64,000 bases of DNA from Patescibacteria group bacterium (GTDB taxonomy: Bacteria > Patescibacteriota > Minisyncoccia > UBA6257 > Colwellbacteraceae). Position numbers and translations under genes: made by a program. Below, piece by piece: positions 8,779 through 61,297 of this stretch; within the stretch, counting starts at the first letter, position 1, and each line of letters begins with the position of its first letter. The notes under the pieces were generated by a model. That model saw nothing but the letters and a program-made list of their open reading frames with translations, had not been told where the DNA came from and made no database searches. The DNA is taken from contig JAMCRD010000006.1 of NCBI GenBank assembly GCA_023380475.1, forward strand, positions 117,996-181,995, read 5' to 3'.

Positions 8779-9942
8779 ATGATTCATAGGGGTATCGCCA
8801 CTTTTGGGCTAGACTACGGCCATTGTCCGCCATGGCTTTTTCAGCGGATGGTTAAACTCGGCCGCGAGATGACCGACATCCTCGTTGAGGAGTACGGGTC
8901 GGATGAATTTGTACGTCGCATGGCCGATCCAGTGTGGTTTCAATCTTTAGGGACAGTTTTGGCGTTCGACTGGAACGCTTCGGGCTTGACCACGATACTT
9001 ACAGCAGCGATGAAAGAGGCTATCCGCGGACGGGAAGCCGAGTTGGGCGTGTTTATCTGCGGTGGTAAAGGCAAAACTTCGCGGCGGGCGCCTGAAGAAA
9101 TTAGAAATTGGGGTGAGCGTTTGGCTTTACCGGAATCTAAAACCAACAACCTAGTTTATAACTCTAAGATGAGCGCCAAGGTGGACAGCGCTTTGGTCCA
9201 AGACGGTTTTCAGATATATCACCACAGTTTTATGTTTTCTAGGAACGGGGTGTGGGCGGTTGTCCAACAGGGTATGAATAAGGATCAGCTGTCAGCGCGC
9301 CGCTATCATTGGTACTCAGAGAAAGTGGAAGACTTGGTGTGCGAACCTCATGCTGGGATATCGTCCGAGGTTAAGCTTTCTAAGGCACTCAACCTGACAG
9401 CGCGGGACAGTTCCAAGACCAGAGAGATATCGACCGAACTGGTGGGAGGGGGTTACGCCACGCTGATGAAAGACATCAATTTACTTAGAAAATACTCTTC
9501 GTCGCTGTCGCAGATGGCCAAACTTGAGACCCAGCGGGGGCAGCTTACATTGCTTAACCTGGAAACGGTTGAGTTTAAATATCATCCGGTCGTGAAAGAA
9601 GATTTTTCCAAGAGCAAGTATTTGGATAAGGTTCTGCAGCGCGTGGCTTACACAAAGCCGGTAAACTATGAGCAACTGCTGGCGATGGAAGGGGTTGGCC
9701 CAAAAACAATGAGGGCGCTGGCCTTGGTGGGCGAAGTAATCTACGGCGCCAAACCATCCTACGAAGATCCGGCGCGTTACAGCTTTGCCCATGGCGGAAA
9801 GGATGCAACGCCGTATCCGGTTGACCGGCCGACCTACGACCGGACTATAGATGTGTTAGCCAGAGCCGTTCGCAAAACCAAATTGGACGCAAATACCAAG
9901 AGTGGTGCGCTGGGCAGACTATATAAGTCGACCAATAAGTAG
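8779..9942 (+). CDS. Conserved hypothetical protein with C-terminal helix-hairpin-helix motif (possibly DUF763-like)
   Basis: 387-aa soluble ORF with HhH-like LLAMEGVGPKTMRALALVGE near the C-terminus; family assignment from memory only. Confidence 0.45.
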   Translation: MIHRGIATFGLDYGHCPPWLFQRMVKLGREMTDILVEEYGSDEFVRRMADPVWFQSLGTVLAFDWNASGLTTILTAAMKEAIRGREAELGVFICGGKGKTSRRAPEEIRNWGERLALPESKTNNLVYNSKMSAKVDSALVQDGFQIYHHSFMFSRNGVWAVVQQGMNKDQLSARRYHWYSEKVEDLVCEPHAGISSEVKLSKALNLTARDSSKTREISTELVGGGYATLMKDINLLRKYSSSLSQMAKLETQRGQLTLLNLETVEFKYHPVVKEDFSKSKYLDKVLQRVAYTKPVNYEQLLAMEGVGPKTMRALALVGEVIYGAKPSYEDPARYSFAHGGKDATPYPVDRPTYDRTIDVLARAVRKTKLDANTKSGALGRLYKSTNK

Positions 9943-16238: not shown

Positions 16239-16249
16239 TGTGATTGACT

Positions 16250-16993
16250 ATGGCTAAATTCAAAAATACTGCGAGTAGCCCACCAGGCATACAGCCCGGG
16301 GAACTGATAACGGTGGGAGGTGTAACCTATGAGCGTTTCCCTATAAAGGTCCCGCGACTGATTGAATTTGGCGAGGATTTGAGTGGGGTGGTGAACGAGT
16401 TTGTGAAGCCTCACTATCAAAAAGGGGACTGGATAGCCGTATCGGAGAAAGTTTTTTCGATATCTCAAAACTTAGTGAGGCACATTTCCACGGTTAAGGT
16501 TGGATTCCTTGCCCGCTTTATCACGCTTGGCGTTAAGAAGTACAAAAACATGACAGCTTGGTCTAGGCCGGAGAAGATGCAGGTCGCTATAGAAATTGTC
16601 GGCGCTCCAAGGATGATCTTTGCCGCTGCTGTCGGAGCAGTAGGTAAATTAGTTGGGCAACACGGGGTATTCTGGAAAATAGCTGGGCATCGCGTTTCAG
16701 AGATAGACGGATTCATTCCTGAAGATATGTATCCTTACACCGAATGGGGCGTGCTACCGCCGCCCGATCCGCAGGGCGATTGCGATAAGCTGGAAAAAAT
16801 TACCGGTATACCGGCAGTAACGGCGGACGCTAACTACATAGACGTACAAGTACTTGGGGTAAGCAAAGGAGTTGGGCTCGATAAGAAAACAGTTAGGCAA
16901 ATCCTAATGGATAATCCCTTGGGGCAGGGCAACAAGATGACGCCATTCGTCATCGTCAGGCGGTTTAAGAATAAGAACCTTGAATCAGCATGA
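16250..16993 (+). CDS. CofE-like (F420-0:gamma-glutamyl ligase family-like) protein, paralog A
   Basis: Motifs GDWIAVSEKVFSISQN and C-terminal DNPLGQGNKMTPFVIVRR resemble the CofE GD..hhSKxVSKAEGR and GxGxxxPxVhhRG motifs. Clear paralogy with the 17778-18824 ORF. Start moved to the first ATG, since the track start is TTG 16244. Confidence 0.5.
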   Translation: MAKFKNTASSPPGIQPGELITVGGVTYERFPIKVPRLIEFGEDLSGVVNEFVKPHYQKGDWIAVSEKVFSISQNLVRHISTVKVGFLARFITLGVKKYKNMTAWSRPEKMQVAIEIVGAPRMIFAAAVGAVGKLVGQHGVFWKIAGHRVSEIDGFIPEDMYPYTEWGVLPPPDPQGDCDKLEKITGIPAVTADANYIDVQVLGVSKGVGLDKKTVRQILMDNPLGQGNKMTPFVIVRRFKNKNLESA

Positions 16994-17772
16994 CGTTCCG
17001 CGGCCAAGTTAAACGGCATGTGCCGTGGTTTGTGCATTATTTGTACCGCAAGTTTTATTACGCTCCCTTGGATGTACCGGCAGCGTTAGGCTTAGTTTTC
17101 CATTCTACGAAATCGCCGACCAGGTTTTTTGATAGATTAAAATTAGTTATCAGTTTCTATAAAATCTCTTACTACGTTGATTGTCCTCATACAGAGCATG
17201 AGTTTTTCACCATTGCACAGCGCATTCTTAATTTGGGCCCGTCGATTAGCGGCGTGATAGCTGAAGCCGGAGTGTTCCATGGTGGTAGCACGGCCAAGCT
17301 TAGCTTGGTCGCGAGGCTTTGCGATCGTGAAATAGACGCCTTCGACTCGTTTGAGGGTATGCCCGAAAACAATGAAGTTCACGGCAAGAGTATTTACGGC
17401 CGTGAGCATCGTTTCCCCAAGGGCAGCCATGCCGTCGGGCTGGATGAAGTTCGAAGGAATATCGCTAAGTATGGCGACTTAAGCCGGGCAGATCTCCATA
17501 AAGGGTTCTTCGACGTAACCATGCCTGGTTTCAAGAGGCCGGTTTCCATTGCCTGTATCAATGTAGATCTCGTGCAGTCAACAAAAGACTGCCTAAGATT
17601 TTTGTACCCATTAGTGTCGCCTGGCGGGCTAATTGTGTCCCAAGACGGCCACTTCCCCTGGATCATAAAACTTCTAGGAGACAAATCTTTCTGGAGGGAA
17701 GAGATAAATATAGACATGCCTAAAATGGAGGGATTGGGGTCATCTAAGTTCGTATTTATTCACAAATCTTAA
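16990..17772 (+). CDS. TylF/MycF-family (macrocin O-methyltransferase-like) SAM-dependent methyltransferase
   Basis: GVIAEAGVFHGGST (SAM glycine loop), AFDSFEGMPE and INVDLVQSTKD motifs characteristic of PF05711-type O-MTs; 4-nt overlap with the upstream gene. Confidence 0.7.
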   Translation: MTFRGQVKRHVPWFVHYLYRKFYYAPLDVPAALGLVFHSTKSPTRFFDRLKLVISFYKISYYVDCPHTEHEFFTIAQRILNLGPSISGVIAEAGVFHGGSTAKLSLVARLCDREIDAFDSFEGMPENNEVHGKSIYGREHRFPKGSHAVGLDEVRRNIAKYGDLSRADLHKGFFDVTMPGFKRPVSIACINVDLVQSTKDCLRFLYPLVSPGGLIVSQDGHFPWIIKLLGDKSFWREEINIDMPKMEGLGSSKFVFIHKS

Positions 17773-17777
17773 AAACA

Positions 17778-18824
17778 ATGCCGACGGAAAATCCTCAAGC
17801 TTACACAGAAATGAAGGACGGAACCGGCCTTGTGGTTTTTTACATACCGCATACAGATGGGTCGGCGGATGTCCGGCTTGCGACCGATGACGGCACTGTT
17901 GTAAGCGAAGCTACGTTTACTAGTGTAAGGATCGACGAAGCTCATATCCTATACATGGAGGTTACGGAACTCCTCCGTTCCCGGGCTGCCGTTAAGGAAA
18001 ACCCAATAAATATCCGCGATAGGGCTGAAAAATTGCTAGCCTCTTTTAGGGGAGAAAAAGTCTCTTTCGAGGAAAATGAACCAGTCTCAGCTTCTCGTCA
18101 CCCATCTGGAGAATTTGTGGCTAACCCCGGTAAGAGGATAGATATCAATGTCGATGGCGTGATCTACAAACGTCTTCCCGTCAGGACTAGGTTGATTACA
18201 GAGAAGGATAGCGACCTACTTCTACTACTGGAGGATTATGTGAAACCGTATATCAGTGCCGGCGATATGCTCTTCGTAAGCGAGAAAGCTCTTTCTATAA
18301 CGCAGGGGCGCGTGGTGGATATGGGTGATATCAAACCTAGATTGCTGGCTAGGGTTCTTGCAAAGAATGTGGGCAACTATTACGGCTCCAGTCAGTTTAG
18401 GGGCTTTGGCCATGGTACAGCACTGGCGATGCAGTTATTTATAGAGGAGGCTGGATATCCACGCGTAATCTTTGCCGCATTCATTTCCGCGCTGACTCGA
18501 TCATTTGGTGTACGTGGCCTCTTCTACCGCATCTGCGGCAAACAGGCAAAGTCAATCGATTGCCCAATGTCCTTCTTGGTTTTAAAGTACGCTCACTCAG
18601 CTAAGCTAGCACCACGCGATCCCAGCGGTGCCGCGCGCAGATTTAAAGAAAATCTTGGTTGCGAGACCGTTATTCTCGATGCCAACTATCGCGGTGCGTT
18701 TTCGCTTGGCAAGTCCAGTAACACCATCTCGGAATCTTTTATCGGCAAGTTGTTCCGCGACAATCCGTTGGGTCAGTCAGATGAAATGACTCCTTTTTGC
18801 ATAGTGCGAAGGGCTGATGCTTAG
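17778..18824 (+). CDS. CofE-like protein, paralog B, with ~100-aa N-terminal extension
   Basis: DGVIYKRLPVRT, KPYISAGDMLFVSEKALSITQGRVV and DNPLGQSDEMTPFCIVRR, collinear with paralog A. Confidence 0.5.
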   Translation: MPTENPQAYTEMKDGTGLVVFYIPHTDGSADVRLATDDGTVVSEATFTSVRIDEAHILYMEVTELLRSRAAVKENPINIRDRAEKLLASFRGEKVSFEENEPVSASRHPSGEFVANPGKRIDINVDGVIYKRLPVRTRLITEKDSDLLLLLEDYVKPYISAGDMLFVSEKALSITQGRVVDMGDIKPRLLARVLAKNVGNYYGSSQFRGFGHGTALAMQLFIEEAGYPRVIFAAFISALTRSFGVRGLFYRICGKQAKSIDCPMSFLVLKYAHSAKLAPRDPSGAARRFKENLGCETVILDANYRGAFSLGKSSNTISESFIGKLFRDNPLGQSDEMTPFCIVRRADA

Positions 18825-20341
18825 CTGAAACCCGGAAAGAAATCCGTTTTAATCTGTCGGGTCGGTATCTTCATGGTTTGCAATGTAGCCTTGGTATCGG
18901 CAACCATCTTGTATGTGCCGGAAATGTAAAAAGTCTTGTGTTGATAGTCCGGTACATGGTGTTTGATCATCTCTGTGTCTATTCTGCCCGTTGAGCCTTC
19001 CCATCCTGCGGGTATGCTGGTTTTATCAGTAAGCGTGTAAATCGTTCTAAGACCGATTTTGTCCTCGGCTTCTCTAAACACGTCTGAATAAACTACTTCA
19101 GACGCAGTATGGTTGGCATACAGTAGTGTGACAGAACGTTTATCTCCACTATCAGACAAGTATTTAATCATGCTTCTGAATGGTGTTATGCCTATGCCTC
19201 CAGCTATGAAGACCAGCCCGATTTTTTTATTTTTAGGCATAGTAAAATCTCCGGCTAGCTGGCCCGCCATAATTTCTTCGCCCGGGACCAGGGATAGTAA
19301 ATTATTCTTGAAGCTGCTGGGATAGTCATAGAATTTAACTCCTAGGCGTAGAGCGCTTTCGGTAGGCGATGAGGCCAGTGTGAAGTAACGGCGGCTGCCG
19401 CGATCATCCGAACGCCCGTGTGCAAGAGTCCATTCCATATACTGACCCGGCTTGAATCTCAGTTTCTTTGCTGGTTTAAACGTAAACTCGTATATCCCCG
19501 TACCAATTCGTTTTCGATCCTTTAGCTTAAGAATGAGCTTTTCTTTGGGGCTTACTATATAAGAGAATATATTCCCAACCACTAATGCCAGTTCCGGTGT
19601 GGAGTACAGTGTACCGATATGTATTGCTGGGGAAAAGAGAAACCCCACCATGGCGCCGTAGATTATTTCCAGCGACCGAGTGGGCGGCGTGGTAAGAGGT
19701 TCGGTTAGCATGACAAAAGCGAAGAAGAACAACGGCGTATGTAGAAGTAGCTGGGAGACGTTTGAAGCTATATCTCCTGAGTAGGTTAATGCCACAGTTA
19801 AAATCGCGACCGACAAAAAAGAGATAACCATCGATGATTTATTTACCTTTCTGACGATCAGCAACCCGCCCAATACAACGAAGGCCATCATCGGTAGGTT
19901 GCCGCCGACCCACCAGCTAGCCGCTCCACCGATGGTTAAAGCCGTTGTAGCTACCGCGAATGCTACCGGGTTAAAAACATGCTTGTTCTTTATAGCGATT
20001 ATATATTTCGAGGTTATAGCTAGAATCGCTGCCCAAATTAGGAGGGGCATGGCGGAAATCTGCGACGGCAGGGCGGGAGTTATAATCAAAGACAAGATCA
20101 ACGCTGTTATATAAGTAGACTCAGTATTAGGTTGCGACTTAAAAACGCTGACGCAGATCTTATTCGTCAGGATGCTAACGATTAGGATAACAGCTGTCGA
20201 AAAAATTATTGAAATCGGGCTGTAAGGAAGTATGTTTAATTGCCCAAATAGCACTGCCGCTATCAACAGTACTATTAGGAAATACAGTACCAACCGGTAC
20301 ATTGTTACCCCATTTAGAAGCTTATCTATCCGGTCGAGCAT
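18821..20341 (-). CDS. Polytopic membrane protein fused to a C-terminal ferredoxin-NADP reductase-like FAD/NAD(P)-binding domain
   Basis: About 8 TM helices in the N-terminal 280 aa; C-terminal RRYFTLAS (RxYS/T FAD motif) and GLVFIAGGIGITPFRSM (NAD(P) motif GGxGxxP); TM domain has only 3 His (no bis-heme pattern). Confidence 0.7.
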   Translation of the reverse strand: MLDRIDKLLNGVTMYRLVLYFLIVLLIAAVLFGQLNILPYSPISIIFSTAVILIVSILTNKICVSVFKSQPNTESTYITALILSLIITPALPSQISAMPLLIWAAILAITSKYIIAIKNKHVFNPVAFAVATTALTIGGAASWWVGGNLPMMAFVVLGGLLIVRKVNKSSMVISFLSVAILTVALTYSGDIASNVSQLLLHTPLFFFAFVMLTEPLTTPPTRSLEIIYGAMVGFLFSPAIHIGTLYSTPELALVVGNIFSYIVSPKEKLILKLKDRKRIGTGIYEFTFKPAKKLRFKPGQYMEWTLAHGRSDDRGSRRYFTLASSPTESALRLGVKFYDYPSSFKNNLLSLVPGEEIMAGQLAGDFTMPKNKKIGLVFIAGGIGITPFRSMIKYLSDSGDKRSVTLLYANHTASEVVYSDVFREAEDKIGLRTIYTLTDKTSIPAGWEGSTGRIDTEMIKHHVPDYQHKTFYISGTYKMVADTKATLQTMKIPTRQIKTDFFPGFS

Positions 20342-21082
20342 TTATGCGGTGTATTTATCGAGGCCGCTGGTCATGGTAGCAACGCCATTTTTGTCTATGG
20401 CATAGCCTTCGAAGCCCTCTAATCTTTCTACGAACTGTATCCCGCTGAGCCCCATAGCAAAAGCGGCGGTGGCGAAACGGTCGGCCTCGTATACATCCGG
20501 CCCGATCACGGTCAAGCTTAAAATTTCATCCGCCACTTTCCCGTTCTTGGGATTGTATATATGCAAGCCTCGTATATATGTGCCGGAAGTTGCTACGCCT
20601 CCGTCGCTTAGGTAAATTGATTTCACGATCTTACTTTGGTTGAAAGGGTCTTTGATGCCGATGAGCCATTTACCTCCCTTGGCGTTCTTCCCGCTAGTTT
20701 GTACGTCGCCGCCGGCATTTATGTAGAAGTTGTTGAAGCCCATCTCTTTTAATATCTTAGCGGCATCCCTTACCGACCAGCCTTTTACTAGTCCCGACGG
20801 GTCATATTTGCCGGCGGGTGTCCTTATGTCAAAGTAGCCGTCAGTTTCTTTTTTGGTTCTTTCGCTTAGGGCGAATACCAGCTTCATGTCGTTGCTCCAC
20901 AATTTCTCACCTAATCCGTCGTTGTTTATGCGGCTTATCTCGCTGGCCGCTTTATAGGTGCTGAATTTGTCGTCGATATATCTAAAGTAACCAAAGATAT
21001 CGTCGAAAACCTCGTCATCGACATCCTGGCCGACAATTTCCACGGATATCGGCATACCCATCACTATCTTGGTCTGTTTCAT
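20342..21082 (-). CDS. apbE: ApbE-family FAD:protein FMN transferase (short form, no signal peptide)
   Basis: MKQTKIVMGMPISVEIVG... N-terminus; conserved ...GYFDI..., GGVATSGTY and ...DAFATA-like (ADRFATAAFAMG) blocks of ApbE/Ftp. Confidence 0.8.
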   Translation of the reverse strand: MKQTKIVMGMPISVEIVGQDVDDEVFDDIFGYFRYIDDKFSTYKAASEISRINNDGLGEKLWSNDMKLVFALSERTKKETDGYFDIRTPAGKYDPSGLVKGWSVRDAAKILKEMGFNNFYINAGGDVQTSGKNAKGGKWLIGIKDPFNQSKIVKSIYLSDGGVATSGTYIRGLHIYNPKNGKVADEILSLTVIGPDVYEADRFATAAFAMGLSGIQFVERLEGFEGYAIDKNGVATMTSGLDKYTA

Positions 21083-21087
21083 TGGTG

Positions 21088-21537
21088 CTAGTTTTTAGCC
21101 TGACTCAGAGCCGAAGTTAACGACTGTTGGTAGGCCAAGCTGGTTTCAGTTGCTCCGGAGACGATATCGACGTTGGCGCTCTGTGACTGAATGGCTTCCT
21201 GTTTAAGTATTGGTAAGGCGTAGCCGCTTACTGCAAGCGAGTGGCCGTTGTCGTTGGGATATTGCAAAAACTGTACGTCGGTTAGCTTGCCGTTTTTTAT
21301 GGCTGCCGCTACCTGCACGTTTCCGTAAAAAGCATTTGCCACACCTCCGTAGAATAAGCCGCCTTTGTATGCCGGTGATCTTGTGACTGAGGCGGGGGAG
21401 GTGGGTCGGACGACGTCGCTACTGCTGGGGACGATAGCCTGTTGAGACGTGGTGAGGGAACCCTGGTTGTCGTTGCTCAGCAAGGCGTAAAGCACGAATG
21501 CGGTTATCACTCCCAGTGAAAACAGGAATTTCTTCAT
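21088..21537 (-). CDS. Secreted or anchored FMN-binding domain protein (FMN_bind; ApbE substrate type)
   Basis: N-terminal signal/anchor MKKFLFSLGVITAFVLYALL; C-terminal DIVSGATETS flavinylation motif (SGATxT). Confidence 0.75.
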   Translation of the reverse strand: MKKFLFSLGVITAFVLYALLSNDNQGSLTTSQQAIVPSSSDVVRPTSPASVTRSPAYKGGLFYGGVANAFYGNVQVAAAIKNGKLTDVQFLQYPNDNGHSLAVSGYALPILKQEAIQSQSANVDIVSGATETSLAYQQSLTSALSQAKN

Positions 21538-21732
21538 GTTGACGGCGTGTGGTGGTTAATCTGGTAACCTAAAGACTGTTGTATTATTACTACACGCAGG
21601 AATCGCAATTCCGTGCAGCGTCCCCCGTCACGCAGCGTTCATATGGGTCGGAGTGTATTATAGGTACATCTAATAGGTATGATGCTGTACGGAGGGGCTG
21701 CGGCGTGCCCATACATAAGTTATTACATTAGC

Positions 21733-22302
21733 ATGAGAGACATCTCGGACGAGAAATTAGTCGGGCTATCTCTGGGGGACGACAAGTATTATGGGGAGCT
21801 CGTTGACCGCTATGAAGGTAGGCTGCAAAAATACATCGTCAGATTCATAAACTGCGGCATAGAAGATGCGCAGGATATCGTGCAGGAGACATTCATAAAA
21901 GCCTATCGCAACCTGAACAACTTCAATCCCGATCTTAAGTTCTCCTCATGGATATATCGCATAGCTCACAATGAGGCCGTGAACTATTTTAGGCAAGCAA
22001 AATCGCATAAGGCGATTGCGATGGAGGATTTTAAACTGGAGGTATTCCCTTCGGGGCAGGATCTAGAGAGAGAACTTGGAGAAAAGATGGAACGGTCCAT
22101 GCTGCTCGATGCCCTCAGCCGTTTGGATACTAAGTATAAGGAAGTGCTCGTCCTGAGATATATGGAAGAAAAGGACTACATGGAGATCTCCGATATCTTG
22201 AAAAAGCCGGTGGGGACGGTGTCTTCGCTCATAAGTAGAGCCAAAAAGTTGCTGATAGAGGAAGTTAAACTAAAAGCTGAGTCAAATGTCAGATATAAGT
22301 AA
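21733..22302 (+). CDS. ECF-type RNA polymerase sigma-70 factor (sigma-24 family)
   Basis: Region 2 (AQDIVQETFIKAYRNLNNFN...FSSWIYRIAHNEAVNYFR) and region 4 (YKEVLVLRYMEEKDYMEISDILKKPVGTVSSLISRAKKLL). The track ORF starts at 21679, but 21733 gives a canonical-length N-terminus. Confidence 0.85.
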   Translation: MRDISDEKLVGLSLGDDKYYGELVDRYEGRLQKYIVRFINCGIEDAQDIVQETFIKAYRNLNNFNPDLKFSSWIYRIAHNEAVNYFRQAKSHKAIAMEDFKLEVFPSGQDLERELGEKMERSMLLDALSRLDTKYKEVLVLRYMEEKDYMEISDILKKPVGTVSSLISRAKKLLIEEVKLKAESNVRYK

Positions 22303-22708
22303 AAAAGTAATAGGGGAGATACATGAGAAGAATATAAAGCCGCTTTCAAAACGGTACTTTGTGGTAAGAAGCACTGCCGTCTGGCTATCCCTGCTTGCTT
22401 CGGTCATATTGGGCGGTATAGCAGTAAGCACAGAGGACATGTTTTTGGAAAGAGCCAACGGATTGATAAATTGGGTTTCCTTGTTCCTGGTGTTCTCTGT
22501 ATTTCTATTCATGACGTTGGCGTATCTCAATGTCCGGTCGACCGGGGACGGCTACCGCTACCGTACTGTGTGGGTTGTGATCAGCATAATTCTGATTTTT
22601 ATAGCTCTAGCAGTGCTTTTCCGCCAGGAAGGGATAGGAGACAGAGTTGAGTCTAGGTTTGATTCGCATTGTCCGGCGATATCGCAATACTGCCCCGACA
22701 GATACTAG
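22286..22708 (+). CDS. Membrane protein, possible cognate anti-sigma factor
   Basis: Overlaps the sigma gene by 17 nt; three predicted TM helices; no conserved motifs. Confidence 0.4.
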   Translation: MSDISKKVIGEIHEKNIKPLSKRYFVVRSTAVWLSLLASVILGGIAVSTEDMFLERANGLINWVSLFLVFSVFLFMTLAYLNVRSTGDGYRYRTVWVVISIILIFIALAVLFRQEGIGDRVESRFDSHCPAISQYCPDRY

Positions 22709-22949
22709 ACGGTGGTCGACCTCATTTTTTAGAGACGCCCTATTTGTTTTGAATAAGATGGTCGGCAGGCGTGTATTAGTTGGTGAAAGGCCACAATTAG
22801 CCTTACCAACTAAACATGAAAATAATCTACCATATACGCTGCCCTACCAGAAGCCAACCTACGACTAGCATAGATTGGTGATGTCGGTTCAACCTATGTA
22901 AAGTTTGCGTACATAAAACCGCGGCTAGGCCGCGGTTGTTATGTAAGTG

Positions 22950-23287
22950 TGGAGGCGGAGGGATTGAACCCTCGTCCAGGAAGTTGCTCAAAGGCGCTCT
23001 ACAAGCTTAGTCCTCTTGCGAAGACGTGGTTGCTCCCGGTGGTTTAACCTGCCTTATTGGGAACCTGTTGGGGCAGGCGATTCCGCTGTATGACACCGGT
23101 TTGACCTCTAGCGGAAATCGAGGACCGATGCCCGACTCATGTGGAGCCGAGGCCAGCATTAAGCCAAAGCCAATGCTGGGGCTGCAACTTTATAGTTGGC
23201 AGTTCTTGGTTTGCGACGGGTTTTACGAGCATGTCGCAGCTCGGCTTGCTACCTTTAAGGGTGCTCCCTGTCGAAGCTTGCGCCCCC
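22950..23287 (-). ncRNA. ssrA: tmRNA (SsrA)
   Basis: Minus-strand 5' end GGGGGCGCAAGC pairs with 3' end ...GGUUCAAUCCCUCCGCCUCC-A (tRNA-like T-arm and acceptor). Internal reading frame GCC AAC UAU AAA GUU GCA GCC CCA GCA UUG GCU UUG GCU UAA encodes the tag (A)NYKVAAPALALA. Located immediately downstream of smpB. Confidence 0.85.
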
Positions 23288-23725
23288 ATTACGTATCTCT
23301 TTCTGAAATTCTTGCTTTTTAAGAAACTCTCGCTTGTCAGCCTTATTTCTCGGGCGAACCAGGCCTATCTCTAGTTTGACTATGCCCAGTTTGCCGCGGG
23401 CAGTATAGATTCTGAGCGGGATAGCAGTCAACCCCTTCTCTTTTATCCGTCCTAACAGGAGGTTTATCTCTTTGCGGTTTAACAGTAGTCTGCGATCACG
23501 CTGCGGTTTATAGCTGGCAGGGGTATTCTTGGGCTGATAAGGTGGGACGTCAGCTCCAATAAGCCAGGCCTCGCCACCCCTCAGGGCGACATGGGCGCCG
23601 GCGATGTTAACCCGGCCCGACTTTATGGCTTTCACCTCGTGGCCGTGCAATTCGATACCCGCCTCAAACTTTTCCAACACGGCGTAATCGTGATAAGCCC
23701 TGCGATTGGCTGCCAATTCACTCAT
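23255..23725 (-). CDS. smpB: SsrA-binding protein SmpB
   Basis: MSELAANRRAYHDYAVLEKFEAGIELHGHEVKAIKSGRVNIAGAHVAL... canonical SmpB sequence; 3' end overlaps the tmRNA 5' end by ~33 nt. Confidence 0.9.
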   Translation of the reverse strand: MSELAANRRAYHDYAVLEKFEAGIELHGHEVKAIKSGRVNIAGAHVALRGGEAWLIGADVPPYQPKNTPASYKPQRDRRLLLNRKEINLLLGRIKEKGLTAIPLRIYTARGKLGIVKLEIGLVRPRNKADKREFLKKQEFQKEIRNGGASFDREHP

Positions 23726-25510: not shown

Positions 25511-28500
25511 TTGATGGCGGAAGAGAATAAACAATTTAAATTGCCGGAAGGAGAGGAGCGCATCCTAAAGTTCTGGGACGAGCGCAAGATTTTCGAAAAG
25601 AGTCTTGAACAGACCCGCCGCAGCAAACCGTTTGCGTTTTATGACGGGCCGCCTTTTGCAACTGGCCTGCCCCACTACGGACATTTACTAGCCTCAACGG
25701 TGAAGGATGTTTTCGGCCGCTACCAGACGATGCGGGGGCGATACGTCCGCCGGCGTTGGGGCTGGGATTGCCACGGCTTGCCCATCGAGGAGGTGGTTGA
25801 AAGAAAGCTGGGCATCTCGGGCAAGAAGCAGATTGAGCAGATCGGCATAAAAAAGTTCAACGAGACCTGCCGCAGCATGGTTTTGGAATATGCCGGTGAG
25901 TGGAAGGAAACAATAAGACGCCTGGGCCGATGGGTCGAGTTCGACGATTCCTATAAAACCATGGATTCAACCTACATGGAGTCGGTCTGGTGGGCTTTCA
26001 AGGAAATATATAAGAAGGGTTTGGTCTACGAAGGTCGGAAGGTGTTGCTGTACTGCCCGCGCTGCGAGACGCCAGTCTCCAACTTCGAGGTAGCAATGGA
26101 CAACAGTTATAAGGATGTCACTGAAGAATCGGTAACGGTTAAGTTCAAAGTTAAGAACCCCGGTAAGATCGGGCTTGGCAACAAGGATTTGTATATCCTG
26201 GCTTGGACGACGACGCCTTGGACATTGCCTGGCAATGTGGCTTTGGCGGTCGGTTCGGAAATAAGGTACAGGATTGTTAGAAGCGGCAACGAATATCTGA
26301 TTGCTGCTGTTGACCGGCTTAAGGATATAGGCTTGGTCGGCGAAAGTGTCGAGTTCGGCCAGGAGCTCACGGGAGCAGACCTAGTTGGACTAGGATACGT
26401 GCCGTTGTTCAACGTTCCGGAAGTTAAGAATGAAAAGTCATTTAGGGTTTATCCGGCATCTTTTGTAACAACCACGGATGGTACAGGTATAGTCCATACG
26501 GCCGTGGTCTACGGTGAAGACGATTACAACCTTGGGGTGCAGGTCGGTTTGCCGGTGGTGCCCATGCTGGATGAGAAAGGAACGTTCAACGACAAGGCAC
26601 CGGAGTTTCTGCGGGGGCAATATTTTAAAAAGGCAGACGGGTTGGTGATAGCTGACCTGGAAAAACGCAACTTGGTTTTCAAGAAAGAGAGTTACACTCA
26701 CTCCTACCCGCACTGCTGGCGGTGCGGCAATATGCTGTTTTACAACGCGATACCGGCCTGGTTCTTCAACATCCAGAAGATAAAGCCGAAGTTGATCAAG
26801 TCCAATAGCAAGGAAATAAATTGGTTCCCGGAGCATTTGAAACACGGCCGCTATGAAAAAAGCATCGAGGCGGCTCCTGACTGGAACATCTCGCGCAACC
26901 GTTACTGGGGCAATCCGATACCGGCATGGAAATGCGATAAATGCGGCCAGACGGAAATCATCGGCAGTATCGACGAATTGTCAGCCCGAGTCGGCAAATC
27001 TAAAAACGAATACTGGATTATGCGCCACGGCGAGGCGGAGACCAATGTCTTTGACGTGACCGATTCAGGCCAGGGCAAATTCCATCTTACGCCTTTGGGC
27101 GAGCGGCAGGCCAAAGAAGCGATAGATAAGTTCGGGAAGGAGTTGTCCAGGCAAGGCAAGAGGATTGATTTGATAATCGCTTCCGACATCCTGCGCACCA
27201 AGGAAACGGCTAAGATCGACGATAAGGAACTCGGCGGGGAGTCGCTCACGTATGACGAGCGCTTGCGCGAGATAAACCTGGGGCCGATACTAAACGGCTG
27301 CCACGACGAGAAATACCACCAGATATTCCCGACCTACCAGGAAAAATTCGAGAAACGGCCGCAAGGCGGGGAATCACTGCGCGATTTGCGTAAGCGGCTG
27401 TGGGAATTTTTGGCTGATTGCGAAACTAAGTACGAGGGCAAGAACATATTGATTGTTACCCACGAATATCCGGCTTGGATGCTGGCTGTAGCCGCCGGAG
27501 CGATGGATGAACGTCAAGCTATAGTGGAGAAGGAAAAATACGGCAAGGATTACATAAATTTTGCTGAGATACGGAAGCTGGGGCTAAGGATAGCGCCCCG
27601 CAACGATACCGGCGAGGTTGACCTGCACCGTCCTTACATCGATGCCGTTACGTTCGCCTGTCGGTCGTGCGGCGGCAAAATGCGGCGCACAACGGAAATA
27701 TTCGACTCTTGGGTGGAAGCAGGATCAATGCCCTTCGCGGAGTTTCACTATCCTTTTGATAACAAGAAAGTGTTCGAAGCTCGTTTCCCGGGACAGTTTG
27801 TCGCTGAGTACATTGCTCAGACCAGGGCTTGGTTTTATGTCATGCATGTCATATCGCTGATTTTGTTCGGGGAAGCACCGTTCGAGAATGTAGTCACAAC
27901 CGGCACGATTTTAGCCGAGGACGGCTCCAAGATGAGCAAGTCCAAAGGCAACTACCCCGACCCCAAGATTGTGCTTGCCAGGTACGGGGCGGATAGCCTG
28001 CGTTTCTACCTTATGAACTCGGTAGTTATGCAGGCCGACAATCTTGATTTCTCGGAGAAGGGAGTGGAGGGTATATACCGCAAGGTGGAACTCCTGATAG
28101 CCAATGTTTACAAATTCTTCGCGACCTACGCCAGCACGAGCAATGCCACTGCGACCGGCGACGAGGCAGCCAGATTGCTGGATTTATGGATCAAGGTCCG
28201 AACGGAGGAGTTGGTGACCGAGGTAACCAAATATCTCGATGTCTACGATACGGTTCGGGCCACGCGCGCCGTCCAGGAATACGTTGACGACTTGTCCACT
28301 TGGTATCTGCGACGCAGCCGTAAGCGTGATGATCGAGCGTTTTTCAACACCTTGCACGATAGCCTCTTAACTCTTAGCAAGGTAATCGCGCCTTTCATGC
28401 CGTTCTTGGCAGATGACTTGTACGGGAAGATCAAGTCGCATGATTTGGCCGACAGCAGAGCTGAGTCGGTGCATTTAACTGCTTGGCCCAAAGCCAGCTT

Positions 28501-29035
28501 CTCCATGCGGGAGTCGAAGCGCCGGGAACTAACAAGCAAGATGGCCGAGGTTCGCCGTTTGGCCAGTTTAGGACTAGCTGGTCGCGAGAGGGTTAAGATT
28601 AAGATCCGTCAGCCGCTCTCTAAGATGTCGGTTAAAGGTAAAGTGACACTCAATAGCGATATGTTGAATATTCTGAAAGACGAGGTGAATGTTAAGGAAG
28701 TTGTGTTTGACCCCGACTTGGTTTTGCCTGAGGATCAGGAAATACAACTTGATACCAACCTAACCGAGGAGCTTAAGGAGGAAGGCGTGCTGCGTGAGAT
28801 GACGAGGTTGATCCAAGGATTAAGACGCGAGGCGGGCCTTGTACCAACCGACACCATAAATTTGCACGTTCAGTGCTCATCCGCAATGCAGCTGGCGCTC
28901 GAGCAGCATCTGGCCGATTTCAGAGACGACATCGGCGCCAGAGAGGTGCTTTTTGGGAAATCCGACAAGTTTACTGCCGAGAAAAGTACTCAAATCGACG
29001 GCGAGCCGATTTGGGTAGGGATAGCTAAGCTTTAG
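25511..29035 (+). CDS. ileS: Isoleucine--tRNA ligase with an inserted histidine-phosphatase (PGAM-family) domain
   Basis: HYGH (PPFATGLPHYGHLL), CP1 editing domain, NISRNRYWGNPIP, KMSKSKGN. Between KCDKCGQTEIIGS and LHRPYIDAV lies an ~200-aa block with IMRHGEAETN ... ILIVTHEYPAW, the two-His signature of the histidine phosphatase superfamily. Confidence 0.95.
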   Translation: MMAEENKQFKLPEGEERILKFWDERKIFEKSLEQTRRSKPFAFYDGPPFATGLPHYGHLLASTVKDVFGRYQTMRGRYVRRRWGWDCHGLPIEEVVERKLGISGKKQIEQIGIKKFNETCRSMVLEYAGEWKETIRRLGRWVEFDDSYKTMDSTYMESVWWAFKEIYKKGLVYEGRKVLLYCPRCETPVSNFEVAMDNSYKDVTEESVTVKFKVKNPGKIGLGNKDLYILAWTTTPWTLPGNVALAVGSEIRYRIVRSGNEYLIAAVDRLKDIGLVGESVEFGQELTGADLVGLGYVPLFNVPEVKNEKSFRVYPASFVTTTDGTGIVHTAVVYGEDDYNLGVQVGLPVVPMLDEKGTFNDKAPEFLRGQYFKKADGLVIADLEKRNLVFKKESYTHSYPHCWRCGNMLFYNAIPAWFFNIQKIKPKLIKSNSKEINWFPEHLKHGRYEKSIEAAPDWNISRNRYWGNPIPAWKCDKCGQTEIIGSIDELSARVGKSKNEYWIMRHGEAETNVFDVTDSGQGKFHLTPLGERQAKEAIDKFGKELSRQGKRIDLIIASDILRTKETAKIDDKELGGESLTYDERLREINLGPILNGCHDEKYHQIFPTYQEKFEKRPQGGESLRDLRKRLWEFLADCETKYEGKNILIVTHEYPAWMLAVAAGAMDERQAIVEKEKYGKDYINFAEIRKLGLRIAPRNDTGEVDLHRPYIDAVTFACRSCGGKMRRTTEIFDSWVEAGSMPFAEFHYPFDNKKVFEARFPGQFVAEYIAQTRAWFYVMHVISLILFGEAPFENVVTTGTILAEDGSKMSKSKGNYPDPKIVLARYGADSLRFYLMNSVVMQADNLDFSEKGVEGIYRKVELLIANVYKFFATYASTSNATATGDEAARLLDLWIKVRTEELVTEVTKYLDVYDTVRATRAVQEYVDDLSTWYLRRSRKRDDRAFFNTLHDSLLTLSKVIAPFMPFLADDLYGKIKSHDLADSRAESVHLTAWPKASFSMRESKRRELTSKMAEVRRLASLGLAGRERVKIKIRQPLSKMSVKGKVTLNSDMLNILKDEVNVKEVVFDPDLVLPEDQEIQLDTNLTEELKEEGVLREMTRLIQGLRREAGLVPTDTINLHVQCSSAMQLALEQHLADFRDDIGAREVLFGKSDKFTAEKSTQIDGEPIWVGIAKL

Positions 29036-32534: not shown

Positions 32535-32560
32535 TTTTATTTGATTTTATTGTTTATTAG

Positions 32561-32643
32561 TGCCGAGGGCGGGACTTGAACCCGCAAGCCTTGAAGGCAC
32601 ACGGCCCTGAACCGTGCATGTTTGCCAGTTTCATCACCTCGGC
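32561..32643 (-). tRNA. tRNA-Leu (anticodon CAG), class II with long variable arm
   Basis: Minus-strand GCCGAGG acceptor / CCUCGGC-A, anticodon loop UUCAGGG (CAG), variable-arm hairpin GCCUUCAAGGC, T-arm GCGGGUUCAAGUCCCGC. Confidence 0.85.
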
Positions 32644-33287
32644 GATGTAACAAACTCTTTTGCTATAAAGAACTTTCTTTCTAAACGCGGTACGTTTGGT
32701 TTGTAGTAAATGCGATTCAGCAGGGCGATCGAGTCTTGTTTGCTGAATGTTAACCTGAATGTTACCGGATCATTTCTAATAAAGCCCCTTTTACCAGTTG
32801 CACTCGTAATCTTTCTCCTAAGCCACAAGATGTGCGGCAGTGAAGCAGACATAAAAGTGGTGTAAAGGCGTAGACTTTTTGGATAAACCGGATCGTTATA
32901 TTTCATGATACAACCATCTCCATCCAAATGTCCTCTGAGAAAATCAAAGAAGAGATCATTGGGTATCTTTAATGCCCCAAGACGTTTTGATTTATTGGGC
33001 ATTAAACCAACATCGAGAAGCCATCGGTAAAGTGTGACATTGCCAAATTGGATGTGAAACGAACTTAATCTGTTAGTGTAACTACTCCGCTTTCTAACTA
33101 TTCCGTTTTTTAAATTAAGGCACTTTTTAAAAGTCTCCATTTGATCCTTATCATTCGAAGTAAAGTCGAAGTGACGGCCATCCGGAGACAAACAGCCGTC
33201 TGTGGTGATAAGTCCCACGGCGTATGCAATCTGGGGTGACCAAGCAATTTCTTTTTGTCTAGGATACATTGACTTACTTGCGTCCAT
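32634..33287 (-). CDS. Free-standing LAGLIDADG homing endonuclease (two-motif, single-chain type)
   Basis: AYAVGLITTDGCL (motif 1) and FLRGHLDGDGCI (motif 2); wedged between pgi and tRNA-Leu, overlapping the tRNA 5' end by ~10 nt. Confidence 0.75.
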   Translation of the reverse strand: MDASKSMYPRQKEIAWSPQIAYAVGLITTDGCLSPDGRHFDFTSNDKDQMETFKKCLNLKNGIVRKRSSYTNRLSSFHIQFGNVTLYRWLLDVGLMPNKSKRLGALKIPNDLFFDFLRGHLDGDGCIMKYNDPVYPKSLRLYTTFMSASLPHILWLRRKITSATGKRGFIRNDPVTFRLTFSKQDSIALLNRIYYKPNVPRLERKFFIAKEFVTSPR

Positions 33288-42722: not shown

Positions 42723-43586
42723 ATGAAAGAAAGTAAAAATTTGGATCAAAATATAGAGGAAGGAAACAAATCGGAAATTGAAGTAGTGGACGTGCTGGTG
42801 GAGGAACAGGCAAAACCGAATTCTTCGGCTAGGACAAATAAGTTCTTGGCGATAAGTATCCTAGTGGCAGCTTTACTGATCTGTGGAACCTTGCTTTACG
42901 TTTTCAATCCTATGAGATCCAACAGCAATGTGACTGGGCAGCCTACTTCTGCGGCGGCCACGGCTAGTACAACCACCATAACTATTCCTAACTTTGCGAC
43001 GAGCTTGCCGTATCCGCAGACCAGGGAGGGCAACGAAGTGGTTTTAGGCAACCCAAAGGCACCGGTGCAAATAGTGGAATACGGAGATTACCAATGCACG
43101 TTCTGCAATCTATACTTTAACCAGACCGAGCCCCTTATAAGGCAGGACTATGTTGCCTCAGGTAAAGTTAGCGAAGTGTTCAAAAATCTTGTGGTTATAG
43201 ATAACTTTGTCCCGGGCGGGCACGAATCGGCCGACGCTGCCCTGGCTGCGAGTTGCGCCATGGACCAGAATAAGTTTTGGGAATACCACGATGCCATTTA
43301 TACATTCAAAACCGCTAACCCTGGAGAAAACGCCGGCGACCTTACCAGGGACATCTTTACCCAGATAGCGACAAAGTTGGGGATGAACGTGGGTCAGTTC
43401 ACGAGTTGTTTCGATTCGAAGAAATACAGCAGCCTTATCGCCAGCGATATGAAAGAAGCCACCTCGCTTTTCTCCCAAGTGGCCACCCCGAGCTTCGTGA
43501 TAAACGGTCAGACGGTGCAGGGAGCGGAGCCTTTCAGCACTTTCCAGACGATAATAGACGCGGTGCTTAAAAAAGCCGGCCAATAA
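42723..43586 (+). CDS. DsbA-family thiol:disulfide oxidoreductase, membrane-anchored/secreted
   Basis: N-terminal TM anchor; thioredoxin-fold CxxC (YGDYQCTFCNLYF); DsbA-like helical insertion. Confidence 0.75.
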   Translation: MKESKNLDQNIEEGNKSEIEVVDVLVEEQAKPNSSARTNKFLAISILVAALLICGTLLYVFNPMRSNSNVTGQPTSAAATASTTTITIPNFATSLPYPQTREGNEVVLGNPKAPVQIVEYGDYQCTFCNLYFNQTEPLIRQDYVASGKVSEVFKNLVVIDNFVPGGHESADAALAASCAMDQNKFWEYHDAIYTFKTANPGENAGDLTRDIFTQIATKLGMNVGQFTSCFDSKKYSSLIASDMKEATSLFSQVATPSFVINGQTVQGAEPFSTFQTIIDAVLKKAGQ

Positions 43587-44065: not shown

Positions 44066-44124
44066 TAACGGCAGTTGACCAAAGCAAGCACTCCTTCAAT
44101 AGGAGCGCTTGCGGTTAAAGGGAT

Positions 44125-44130
44125 ATAATA
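44125..44130 (+). promoter_or_regulatory. -10 box TATAAT 5 nt upstream of the ATG at 44136
   Basis: gggaTATAATaagacgATG. Confidence 0.3.
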
Positions 44131-44135
44131 AGACG

Positions 44136-45059
44136 ATGAACTATGAATTGGTTATTGTGGGCGGCGGTCCGGCCGGAGTGGCGGCTGGGGTTTACGCCGA
44201 GCGCAAGAAAATAAGGACGTTGCTGGTCGCCGAGTCGTTCGGTGGACAGTCGATCGTCTCCGGAGAGATAAGAAATTGGATCGGAACCAAGTCGATATCC
44301 GGTTTAGAGTTGGCTAAAGCGCTTGAAGAGCACCTCAAAGCTCACCAGGATATAGATATTCTGGAAGGCGAGCGCGTTGCCAAGATTTCCAGAGCCGATG
44401 GCGGATTTCAAATTGAGACTTCCGGCGGCAAAGTTTTCGGGGCCAAGACCATAATGATGGCAAGCGGTAGCCGCCGCCGACGCTTAGCTATTCCGGGCGA
44501 GGATAAGTTTGATGGCCACGGCGTTTCGTACTGTTCGATTTGTGACGCCCCGCTTTTCAAAAATAAGAATGTGGCCGTGGTGGGCGGAGGCAACTCAGCT
44601 TTGGAAGCGGTGGTTGATTTGTTGCCGTATGCCAGCAACATTTATTTGTTGCAGCACAGCGCTGCACTGAAGGGCGATCAGGTGACACAGGATAGGATAG
44701 CGAAGGAACCGAAAGTTAAAACCTGCCTTAATGCCGAAACAAAAGAAATTGTCGGCGACGATATGGTCAAAAGTCTCAAGTATCAGGACAATGTTACCAA
44801 GGAGATTAAGGAACTAGCGGTGGACGGCGTTTTTGTGGAGATAGGCATAGTCCCCAATTCGGAATTAGTTAAAGACCTAGTGCAGCTTAATCCATTGGGC
44901 GAGATTGTGGTTGACCAAAAGACTCAGCAGTCTTCGCTGGAGGGCATTTGGGCAGCCGGGGATGTAGGCGACGCGCTATATAAGCAGAACAATATATCCG
45001 CGGGCGACGCCATTAAGGCTATACTTAGCATCTACACCTATCTGAACAAGTCTAAATAG
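44136..45059 (+). CDS. trxB: Thioredoxin-disulfide reductase
   Basis: VIVGGGPAG FAD motif, redox-active CSICD, second Rossmann VAVVGGGNSALE. The track ORF starts at TTG 44109, but ATG 44136 gives the canonical M-x-Y-[ED]-hhIhGGGPAG N-terminus. Confidence 0.85.
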   Translation: MNYELVIVGGGPAGVAAGVYAERKKIRTLLVAESFGGQSIVSGEIRNWIGTKSISGLELAKALEEHLKAHQDIDILEGERVAKISRADGGFQIETSGGKVFGAKTIMMASGSRRRRLAIPGEDKFDGHGVSYCSICDAPLFKNKNVAVVGGGNSALEAVVDLLPYASNIYLLQHSAALKGDQVTQDRIAKEPKVKTCLNAETKEIVGDDMVKSLKYQDNVTKEIKELAVDGVFVEIGIVPNSELVKDLVQLNPLGEIVVDQKTQQSSLEGIWAAGDVGDALYKQNNISAGDAIKAILSIYTYLNKSK

Positions 45060-57424: not shown

Positions 57425-57584
57425 TGTCTCTGCTCAACGATGGTGACAGATCGTTTACAAGTGAACAAATAAGTAACCAAATTGGTAAAGGTTCAAAACA
57501 ATAGATAATAAATAGAGAATTTTTTAGTTGTCCCAAAGCACTTTACTTTCGACCGGCCCAGCATGGGTGGTCGAAAGTTTTTTT

Positions 57585-59928
<2,344 letters not shown>

Positions 59929-60616: not shown

Positions 60617-61297
60617 ATGGTCGACAAGACAAATCAACATGCAATGGATATGGAAAAGACAACCCCGAAGAGAGGCTTCACTTTGATCGAGTTGTTGATC
60701 GTGATAGCTATTTTGGGTGTTTTGGCTTCAGCGGTGGTGGTGGTTCTGAACCCGGCTGAGTTGCTGGCGGAAGCCAGGGACAGCCAGAGGATGTCTGACT
60801 TGAACAACGTAAGTACAGGTCTTAACCTCTTCTTGTCTCAGGTCGGAGCAACATCCTCGGCCAGCATGGATTATTCAACCTACGGACCAGGCGGCGGATG
60901 CAGTTATATCAACAGTACCTCCACGCAACCATTCAACTACACCAATGGTACTGGCGGCACTGCTCCGTATGCCTCCTCTTCGCAGGCTAGTACAACCAGA
61001 CTGATAAACGGAACCGGTTGGGCTGACGTTAACTTCGCTGCCATCCCGGGCGGTGCGCCATTCAGCGTTCTACCGATTGACCCGACTAACGGCAGCAACT
61101 ACTACACCTACTGTTACGTAGGTACCAGCACCCCCACTTACTCGTACAAGTTGGCGACGCGCATGGAGAGTGTCAAGTTTGCATCGAAGGAGATACAATG
61201 GGATGCTTCTACATCGACTACTGCTTGCGGCGGTAGCGGGCCAGCTGCTACTAACCAGTACTGCTGGTATCAGGTTGGGACCAACCTTGGTTTGTAA
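60617..61297 (+). CDS. Type IV pilin / pseudopilin (prepilin with class III signal peptide)
   Basis: Prepilin cleavage and N-methylation motif KRG|FTLIELLIVIAILGVLA. The true start is more likely ATG 60644 or 60650, giving leader MEKTTPKRG. Ser/Thr/Gly-rich C-terminal domain. Confidence 0.8.
   Translation: MVDKTNQHAMDMEKTTPKRGFTLIELLIVIAILGVLASAVVVVLNPAELLAEARDSQRMSDLNNVSTGLNLFLSQVGATSSASMDYSTYGPGGGCSYINSTSTQPFNYTNGTGGTAPYASSSQASTTRLINGTGWADVNFAAIPGGAPFSVLPIDPTNGSNYYTYCYVGTSTPTYSYKLATRMESVKFASKEIQWDASTSTTACGGSGPAATNQYCWYQVGTNLGL

Follow-up and report, generated by a model that had tools for sequence, protein, structure and literature searches.

A compact NQR/RNF-like flavin-transfer cluster with a signal-less ApbE in a Patescibacteria genome

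Comparison with described NQR/RNF-type systems

NQR/RNF-like systems were defined by Méheust et al. (2021, eLife, PMC8238504) as flavinylation clusters, with apbE or an FMN_bind gene no more than five genes away, that encode a protein whose N-terminal domain is PF03116 and whose C-terminal domain is PF00175. The survey reported 127 NQR/RNF-like clusters and kept only those clusters in which the target gene was SignalP-positive. Huang et al. (2024, mSystems/bioRxiv, PMC10979944) used AlphaFold-multimer to model a Ktedonobacter complex of the class, which consisted of two subunits. They found that the flavinylation site of NqrB/RnfD was unconserved in the class and suggested that the covalent flavin mononucleotide (FMN) of the NqrC-like subunit enters the vacant NqrB-like pocket. 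Bioinformatics and AlphaFold models were the only basis on which the class was proposed. Here, we analyzed a 64,000-nucleotide stretch of a Patescibacteria group bacterium genome (GCA_023380475.1, contig JAMCRD010000006.1, positions 117,996 to 181,995 of the forward strand; referred to as the window, with positions counted from its first nucleotide). The window carries three minus-strand genes, referred to as the trio, which encode a 149-residue FMN_bind protein (21088..21537), a short, signal-less FAD:protein FMN transferase of the ApbE family with 246 residues (20342..21082), and a 506-residue membrane-FNR protein (18821..20341). We found that the trio is a new member of this already described, bioinformatically defined class. 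We consider, with a probability of roughly 0.7, that it encodes a dedicated flavin transferase along with a two-subunit, Nqr/Rnf-like complex that transfers electrons across the membrane by means of flavins.

As in the definition of Méheust et al., PF03116 and PF00175 are present in one protein, and apbE and the FMN_bind gene adjoin it upstream on the same strand; the architecture of the trio is that of the class without any difference. The traits described by Huang et al. are also present, as the flavinylated threonine of the membrane subunit is gone and the locus contains two structural subunits with no further Nqr/Rnf genes. Canonical Rnf and Na+-NQR have a covalent FMN site (the SGAT threonine) in the membrane subunit, which is absent here, and a six-subunit operon with RnfA/E or NqrD/E and a cytoplasmic Fe-S or NADH subunit (RnfB/C, NqrA/F), of which none was found in the window or the related loci. 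The ApbE protein has the fold and the active-site motifs of its family and lacks the N-terminal signal or lipoprotein anchor. Members of the class are found mainly in the candidate phyla radiation (CPR) and in monoderm phyla, and an adjacent extracytoplasmic function (ECF) sigma pair is an addition of the present lineage. What is new here is the commonness of the class, which was found in at least 594 species genomes compared with the 127 clusters of the earlier survey, and the invariably signal-less ApbE.

When the trio was compared with the Na+-NQR of Vibrio cholerae, we found the NqrB fold to be common to both membrane domains (query TM-score (TMq) of ~0.6), the FMN_bind subunit to have the motif and the predicted topology of NqrC, and the FNR module to resemble the FAD/NADH domain of NqrF. 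In contrast, NqrA, NqrD, NqrE and the 2Fe-2S domain of NqrF are absent here, the Thr236 loop of NqrB is deleted, the FNR module is fused directly to the NqrB-like domain, and no quinone chemistry is in evidence. The electron flow of Na+-NQR is semicircular, whereas that of the trio would probably be one-way and outward. In the comparison with Rnf, RnfD chains were the best structural matches (8rbq_D, 7zc6_D, 8ahx_D and 9eri_D, with TMq values of 0.71-0.74), and RnfD (8ahx_D) was also the best sequence-profile match of the membrane domain. However, the trio lacks RnfA, RnfB, RnfC, RnfE, the ferredoxin link and the flavinylation site of RnfD.

Two further systems share single aspects with the trio. 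In the extracellular electron transfer system of the monoderm Listeria (FmnB/ApbE, PplA, Ndh2 and EetA/B), a surface protein flavinylated by ApbE likewise takes electrons from cytoplasmic NADH. These electrons pass through the quinone pool, whereas a direct protein conduit is proposed for the trio; moreover, Listeria FmnB is a lipoprotein that is exported and relies on a flavin transporter for its supply, while the ApbE of the trio has no export signal. The cytoplasmic (second) ApbE of Klebsiella pneumoniae, which serves a soluble fumarate reductase, is also signal-less, but its substrate is cytoplasmic, and the substrate in the trio is predicted to be membrane-anchored and exported.

Domain content and conserved gene order

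The five open reading frames (ORFs) of the locus, which are the trio and a divergent ECF-type sigma gene with its overlapping partner gene, were confirmed in the ORF list of the window. The same five genes were called independently in NCBI GCA_023476555.1 (JAMCXC010000004.1), a metagenome-assembled genome of a Patescibacteria group bacterium that carries an identical ApbE. As the initial annotation described, the three minus-strand genes are co-directional and tightly packed: the gap between the FMN_bind and ApbE genes is 5 nt, and the ApbE stop codon directly abuts the ATG of the membrane-FNR gene (0 nt).

The membrane domain of the 506-residue protein (residues 1-268; 19538..20341, minus strand) was assigned by sequence and by fold. 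PF03116 (NQR2_RnfD_RnfE) matched residues 151-261 with 34.0 bits, compared with a curated cut-off of 27.7, and weak NCBIfam matches to rnfD and RsxD were also present. A profile of this domain, built from 27 homologues and searched against all PDB sequences, matched only RnfD (8ahx_D, 6e-4) and NqrB (7xk3_B and others, ~1e-3). The AlphaFold model of residues 1-268 had a pLDDT of 76.6 and a pTM of 0.77. Its top 15 PDB matches were all RnfD/NqrB, with a probability of 1.00 and TMq values of 0.55-0.74, and the next fold matches were Rh and urea transporters with E > 0.1. A fold search with the full-length protein was dominated by the FNR domain and was uninformative on the membrane part. The initial annotation correctly counted exactly three histidines in the transmembrane domain (121, 201 and 241) and recognized the C-terminal FNR motifs; its estimate of ~8 helices was too low, as ~10 are present in the AlphaFold model. 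Its remark that the membrane subunit has no obvious cofactor site has to be withdrawn, because the domain is NqrB/RnfD-like and this is the flavin-carrying subunit of Nqr and Rnf.

The domain differs from NqrB in the loss of the FMN loop. In the profile alignment, NqrB residues ~200-271, including the flavinylated Thr236, have no counterpart, and the corresponding stretch of the window protein contains only ~24 residues. The motif [ST]GA[ST] is absent from residues 1-268. In the AlphaFold model, the site of the deleted loop falls between helices 5 and 6 of the NqrB-like domain. With the C-terminal FNR module in the cytoplasm and ~10 helices, this site (residues 138-148) is placed on the outer face, and the predicted outward position agrees with an external partner.

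The C-terminal half of the protein (residues 269-506; 18821..19537, minus strand) forms a complete FNR-type module for FAD and NAD(P)H. PF00175 (NAD_binding_1) matched with 64.1 bits (cut-off 22; 2.2e-17), NCBIfam alignments cover residues 272-502, and the motifs RRYFTLAS and GGIGITPF are both present. Using Foldseek, we found a TM-score of 0.85 to the FAD/NAD domain of flavohaemoglobin, along with many NqrF matches and additional matches to b5-reductase structures.

The 149-residue protein (PF04205, 2.9e-8) is composed of an N-terminal signal-anchor, a Ser/Thr/Pro-rich linker and a C-terminal FMN_bind domain, and both the hydrophobic span and the SGAT motif reported for it at first were present. 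The signal-anchor, which consists of MKK and ~19 hydrophobic residues, is the sole hydrophobic span in the hydropathy profile (residues 1-22). The SGAT motif lies at residues 127-130 within VDIVSGATETS (codons S127-G128-A129-T130 at 21148..21159, minus strand), and Thr130 is the predicted acceptor of ApbE-dependent flavinylation. The top PDB match was 8p2a, an actinobacterial FMN-binding domain (1.5e-12), in which the SGAT of the flavinylated domain aligns with that of the window protein; a weak NCBIfam match to PplA was also found. The protein is an NqrC/RnfG-like subunit.

This layout was compared among 65 FMN_bind homologues. A hydrophobic N-terminal segment was found in 63 of them, giving the same signal-anchored layout as in the window, and [ST]GA[ST] was also kept in 63/65. 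In 59/65 homologues, Lys/Arg residues are more numerous on the N-terminal side of this segment than on its C-terminal side, which indicates an N-in, C-out orientation of the FMN_bind partners. No twin-arginine motif was present in the 65 homologues, and their linkers are variable and Ser/Thr/Pro-rich. From hydropathy and charge, the signal-anchor looks uncleaved, and SignalP might therefore not call it. The SignalP filter may partly account for the low number of CPR clusters in the 2021 survey.

The family is widespread. At least 7,920 relatives of the 506-residue protein were found in the protein collection; among the relatives listed, nearly all contain PF00175 along with PF03116, and many are labeled Patescibacteria, Paceibacterota or Minisyncoccia. 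Close relatives are encoded in at least 594 species genomes, mostly of CPR bacteria and Chloroflexota. Gene context was counted in the 80 best of these loci from the species-level genome set, whose lineage labels include 39 CPR, 20 Chloroflexota, 1 Thermoleophilia, 2 Thermoanaerobaculia and 3 doubtful automatic labels. ApbE is present in 72/80 loci and FMN_bind in 71/80, and the order FMN_bind, ApbE, membrane-FNR on one strand is conserved in at least 57/80, with six further loci mis-scored for gene order owing to overlapping ORF calls. The spacers within the trio are mostly -4 to +5 nt, which suggests translational coupling. When all neighboring ORFs of the 80 loci were clustered, no fourth conserved gene was found; the most frequent other genuine family, an ABC ATPase, occurs in 11/80 loci. 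Neither a further Rnf/Nqr subunit nor a respiratory complex is encoded in the 64-kb window itself, in line with the early statement that no respiratory chain is in view. With no further Rnf/Nqr gene in the window and none among the recurring neighbors, the trio is a self-contained module rather than a piece of a standard operon.

A separate observation concerns the spacer between the FMN_bind and ApbE genes. This spacer is 5 nt or shorter in most loci; in two loci (L002 and L010) it is 151 nt long and contains long GC-rich inverted repeats, which could represent an inserted structured element or a terminator/attenuator.

The signal-less ApbE and the proposed electron route

The window ApbE (PF02424, 1.3e-40) was described at first as a 246-residue protein without a signal peptide, and this is borne out: it contains no hydrophobic segment, and its ORF is already maximal, so that no upstream extension is possible. 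Solved ApbE structures in the PDB match it at 5e-16 and weaker. Residue 3 of the window protein aligns to residue 24 of Listeria FmnB (7esa_A), and only two residues precede the catalytic core. Although ~50 internal residues of canonical ApbE are skipped, the active-site motifs ATSG, H-x-x-[DN]-P and EAD..T are retained. None of the 70 full-length ApbE homologues from the 80 loci has a hydrophobic N- or C-terminal segment, and all 70 begin with MK-x-T-R-x-x-MGMP. The 120 best of at least 7,721 database matches to the short ApbE are all stand-alone proteins of 235-269 residues, and no fusion to a partner of known topology was found among them. The ApbE of the class is, in every homologue checked, a short form of ~247 residues without a signal.

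Two explanations of the missing signal were considered and rejected. A mis-called start is contradicted by the maximal ORF, and the 15 apparent N-terminal extensions among the homologues are Arg-rich out-of-frame overlaps with an internal MKxTR start. A programmed frameshift or read-through that fuses ApbE to FMN_bind, and would thereby bring ApbE outside, is not consistent with the reading-frame offsets between the two genes, which vary (28, 19 and 12 over 59 loci), or with spacers that reach 151 nt and contain stops in the same 59 loci. In the window, ApbE is in the -1 frame, 5 nt past an AAAAAC-TAG.

In the mechanism that we propose, the cytoplasmic FNR module of the 506-residue protein would take electrons from NAD(P)H onto a flavin that is bound non-covalently. 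The fused NqrB/RnfD-like domain would then conduct the electrons across the membrane, probably by way of a non-covalent flavin as in NqrB, to the outer face, where the signal-anchored FMN_bind subunit would carry, on Thr130, the FMN that ApbE is predicted to attach. This FMN may fill the pocket vacated by the deleted NqrB loop. The final acceptor would be encoded outside the cluster, with Fe(III), O2, soluble flavin or quinone, and a surface protein as candidates. Such a module would regenerate NAD(P)+ or provide extracytoplasmic reducing power in a fermentative CPR cell. The minimal NAD(P)H-to-extracytoplasmic-flavin conduit that the initial annotation envisaged fits the domains present, their predicted topology and the published model of the class. 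The outcomes that would have spoken against it were a known transporter fold of the membrane domain with no cofactor site, a cytoplasmic FMN_bind protein combined with a mis-called ApbE start, and a fragment of a standard Rnf/Nqr operon; none of these was found.

Several points weigh against this interpretation. The topology was derived from hydropathy, the positive-inside rule and the helices of the AlphaFold model. The intermediate flavin is postulated, no terminal acceptor is encoded in the cluster, and no experimental study of the NQR/RNF-like class was found in the literature searched. The strongest conflict is that ApbE is signal-less in 70/70 homologues, whereas its presumed substrate is exported (63/65 signal-anchored).

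We weighed three other readings, none of which is favored. The signal-less ApbE in all 70 homologues would suit a system that faces the cytoplasm, in which FMN_bind is located inside and flavinylated there. FMN_bind would work together with FNR at the inside of the NqrB-like domain and reduce, for example, a membrane quinone or another lipid-soluble acceptor, with no extracytoplasmic electron transfer. The quinone and riboflavin sites of NqrB are located towards the cytoplasmic side, which also speaks for such an arrangement, whereas NqrC and RnfG carry their FMN domain outside, in the topology proposed here. To our knowledge, quinones are generally absent in CPR bacteria, which counts against this reading. 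The second ApbE of Klebsiella pneumoniae, with its cytoplasmic substrate, provides a precedent for flavinylation inside the cell (JBC 2025 review). Nevertheless, we regard a cytoplasm-facing system as rather unlikely in view of the classical N-in signal-anchor with its Lys/Arg excess in the N-terminal flank (59/65), the Ser/Thr/Pro-rich tether that is typical for surface proteins, and the position of the deleted loop on the outer face if the FNR module is inside.

Ion pumping by the membrane domain, in which Na+ or H+ would be moved at the expense of electron transfer from NAD(P)H or the reaction would run in reverse on the gradient of the neighboring F-ATPase, draws on the homology of its fold to NqrB/RnfD, whose parent complexes translocate ions. 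An F-type ATPase operon is present ~3 kb away, both in the window and in its closest relative (L081), but this neighborhood reflects lineage-specific synteny and is unconserved across loci. The remaining membrane subunits of the Nqr/Rnf core, NqrD/E and RnfA/E, occur neither in the window nor in the 80 loci, and an ion pump is quite improbable. Finally, NCBI labels several homologues as 'RnfABCDGE type electron transport complex subunit D', as would be expected if the trio were a fragment of a standard Rnf or Nqr operon with its remaining genes elsewhere. The FNR fusion takes the place of NqrF/RnfC, however, and the flavinylation loop of RnfD/NqrB is deleted; no RnfA/B/C/E or NqrA/D/E/F is encoded within the 64-kb window, no further gene recurs in the 80 loci, and the class has been described as two-subunit. 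An operon fragment is therefore very unlikely indeed.

For the two-subunit outward-facing complex, the oddity noted at the beginning is confirmed and family-wide: the ApbE is predicted to be cytoplasmic, and its presumed substrate to be exported (70/70 ApbE proteins without a signal and 63/65 partners anchored). It implies either a maturation route that has not been described or a wrong topology model. Three options are left: ApbE could act on the unfolded precursor in the cytoplasm ahead of translocation, another ApbE that is exported could be encoded elsewhere in the genome, or the topology model could be wrong. We tentatively raise, as a minority possibility, a class-wide route in which the signal-less mini-ApbE flavinylates the exported FMN subunit in the cytoplasm before or during Sec/YidC insertion, after which the subunit is translocated. 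If this were true, export of FAD would be unneeded, and the route would be a new one for the maturation of extracytosolic flavoproteins. It could also help explain surface redox chemistry in genome-minimal CPR cells and the under-counting of CPR bacteria in surveys filtered by signal peptides. Cytoplasmic ApbEs are known only for cytoplasmic substrates (JBC 2025 review), and the main texts of both papers on the class leave the conflict undiscussed. The mismatch between ApbE and its substrate is a concrete question that existing flavinylation models leave unanswered.

The locus adds little on the class itself, which was already described, and serves as a clean, compact example. The main interest lies in the family-wide combination of a signal-less ApbE with an exported substrate and in the apparent abundance of the module in CPR bacteria. 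Patescibacteria (CPR) are not known to have electron-transport chains. If two structural genes and their own flavin transferase do move NAD(P)H electrons outward, the module would be among the few membrane redox devices of these bacteria, with a bearing on CPR redox rebalancing, iron acquisition, oxygen tolerance and host interaction.

The ECF sigma pair and the rest of the window

As first described, an ECF-type sigma gene and an overlapping membrane-protein gene diverge from the trio, and the coordinates agree with this. The sigma protein (21733..22302, plus strand) has 189 residues, or 207 from an alternative ATG at 21679. It matched Sigma70_r2 (7e-18) and Sigma70_r4_2 (1e-13) in Pfam and sigma70-ECF in NCBIfam (101 bits, cut-off 42.9), and regions 2 and 4 are the only ones present, as in a Group IV sigma. 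The partner (22286..22708, plus strand), which overlaps the sigma gene by 17 nt, is a 140-residue protein with three hydrophobic spans and a possible but unproven anti-sigma. It has no Pfam or NCBIfam match and matches no recognized anti-sigma family, and the ~22 cytoplasmic residues ahead of its first transmembrane span are too few for a classical anti-sigma domain. The assignment of the two genes as a sigma/anti-sigma pair holds for the sigma and is unproven for its partner.

Any ECF sigma within 8 kb was found in 8/80 loci, and a BLAST-detectable homologue of the 140-residue protein in 0/80. In three loci (L020, L026 and L063, two of them labeled Peregrinibacteria), a sigma gene, an overlapping gene for a three- to four-span membrane protein and then the trio are arranged on one strand. 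These sigma proteins are 38-41% identical to the window sigma, and the membrane proteins are homologous to the 140-residue protein (hhalign E 2.3e-5, probability 76%; pairwise BLASTP E 0.017). The closest relative, L081 (69% identity), has the same divergent sigma layout as the window; it is syntenic across the whole region and is therefore not independent evidence for the ECF link. Among 82 distinct examples (the 80 reference loci, L081 and the window), a homologous sigma and membrane partner adjoin the trio in five. The ECF link recurs in two arrangements and is confined to certain lineages.

The divergent intergenic region (21538..21732) was aligned with that of L081, and the sole conserved element was a box reading TATAAT on the minus strand and TATTAT on the plus strand at ~21656-21662. 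No shared ECF promoter of the form AAC-N15-18-CGT was found upstream of the trio or the sigma genes in the five loci. Specifically, the ECF-dependent promoter that had been anticipated upstream of 21537 was not recovered as a conserved AAC-N16-17-CGT. Scans of the region for sigma-70 consensus sequences and terminators gave no excess over shuffled sequence. Control of the trio by the ECF sigma, as put forward in the initial annotation, is possible: the recurrence of the homologous pair (5/82, in two arrangements) gives it slight weight, and no shared ECF-type promoter was found.

Elsewhere, the window carries glycolysis and pentose-phosphate genes, a thioredoxin reductase, an exported DsbA-like protein and the F-type ATPase. 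The genes for the DsbA/Thioredoxin_4-like protein (42723-43586, plus strand) and the thioredoxin-reductase-like flavoprotein (44109-45059, plus strand) are located ~20 kb from the trio and encode further redox components, which could be surface-related. On the opposite side of the trio from the sigma gene, two paralogous CofE-like genes (F420_ligase, weak Pfam matches) flank a TylF-type O-methyltransferase gene (16244-18824, plus strand). The second CofE-like gene converges on the trio with a 4-nt overlap, and only that gene is retained in L081; the CofE-like association is missing in 79/80 other loci.

Beyond the sigma partner gene, smpB (23255-23725, minus strand) is followed directly by a tmRNA gene (22947-23287, minus strand; Rfam 117 bits; tag peptide ANYKVAAPALALA) that overlaps it slightly, which explains the ORF-free stretch next to the partner gene. 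The isoleucyl-tRNA synthetase (25511-29035, plus strand; 1174 residues) contains an inserted histidine-phosphatase domain with RHGE in the translation. The L081 orthologue is annotated tRNA-synt_1 / His_Phos_1 / tRNA-synt_1, and such an insertion is unusual for an aminoacyl-tRNA synthetase. A LAGLIDADG-type homing-endonuclease-like ORF (32634-33287, minus strand; Pfam 7.8e-6) adjoins tRNA-Leu(CAG) at 32560-32643. A complete 16S rRNA gene (57579-59060, plus strand) is followed ~460 nt later by a group I intron (59523-59875, plus strand; Rfam 75.9 bits), which is presumably located inside the 23S rRNA gene; further ORFs are present at 60617-61297 and 61350-63077. Additionally, the window encodes a DUF763 protein at 8779-9942 (plus strand) with a very strong match of 2.9e-123.

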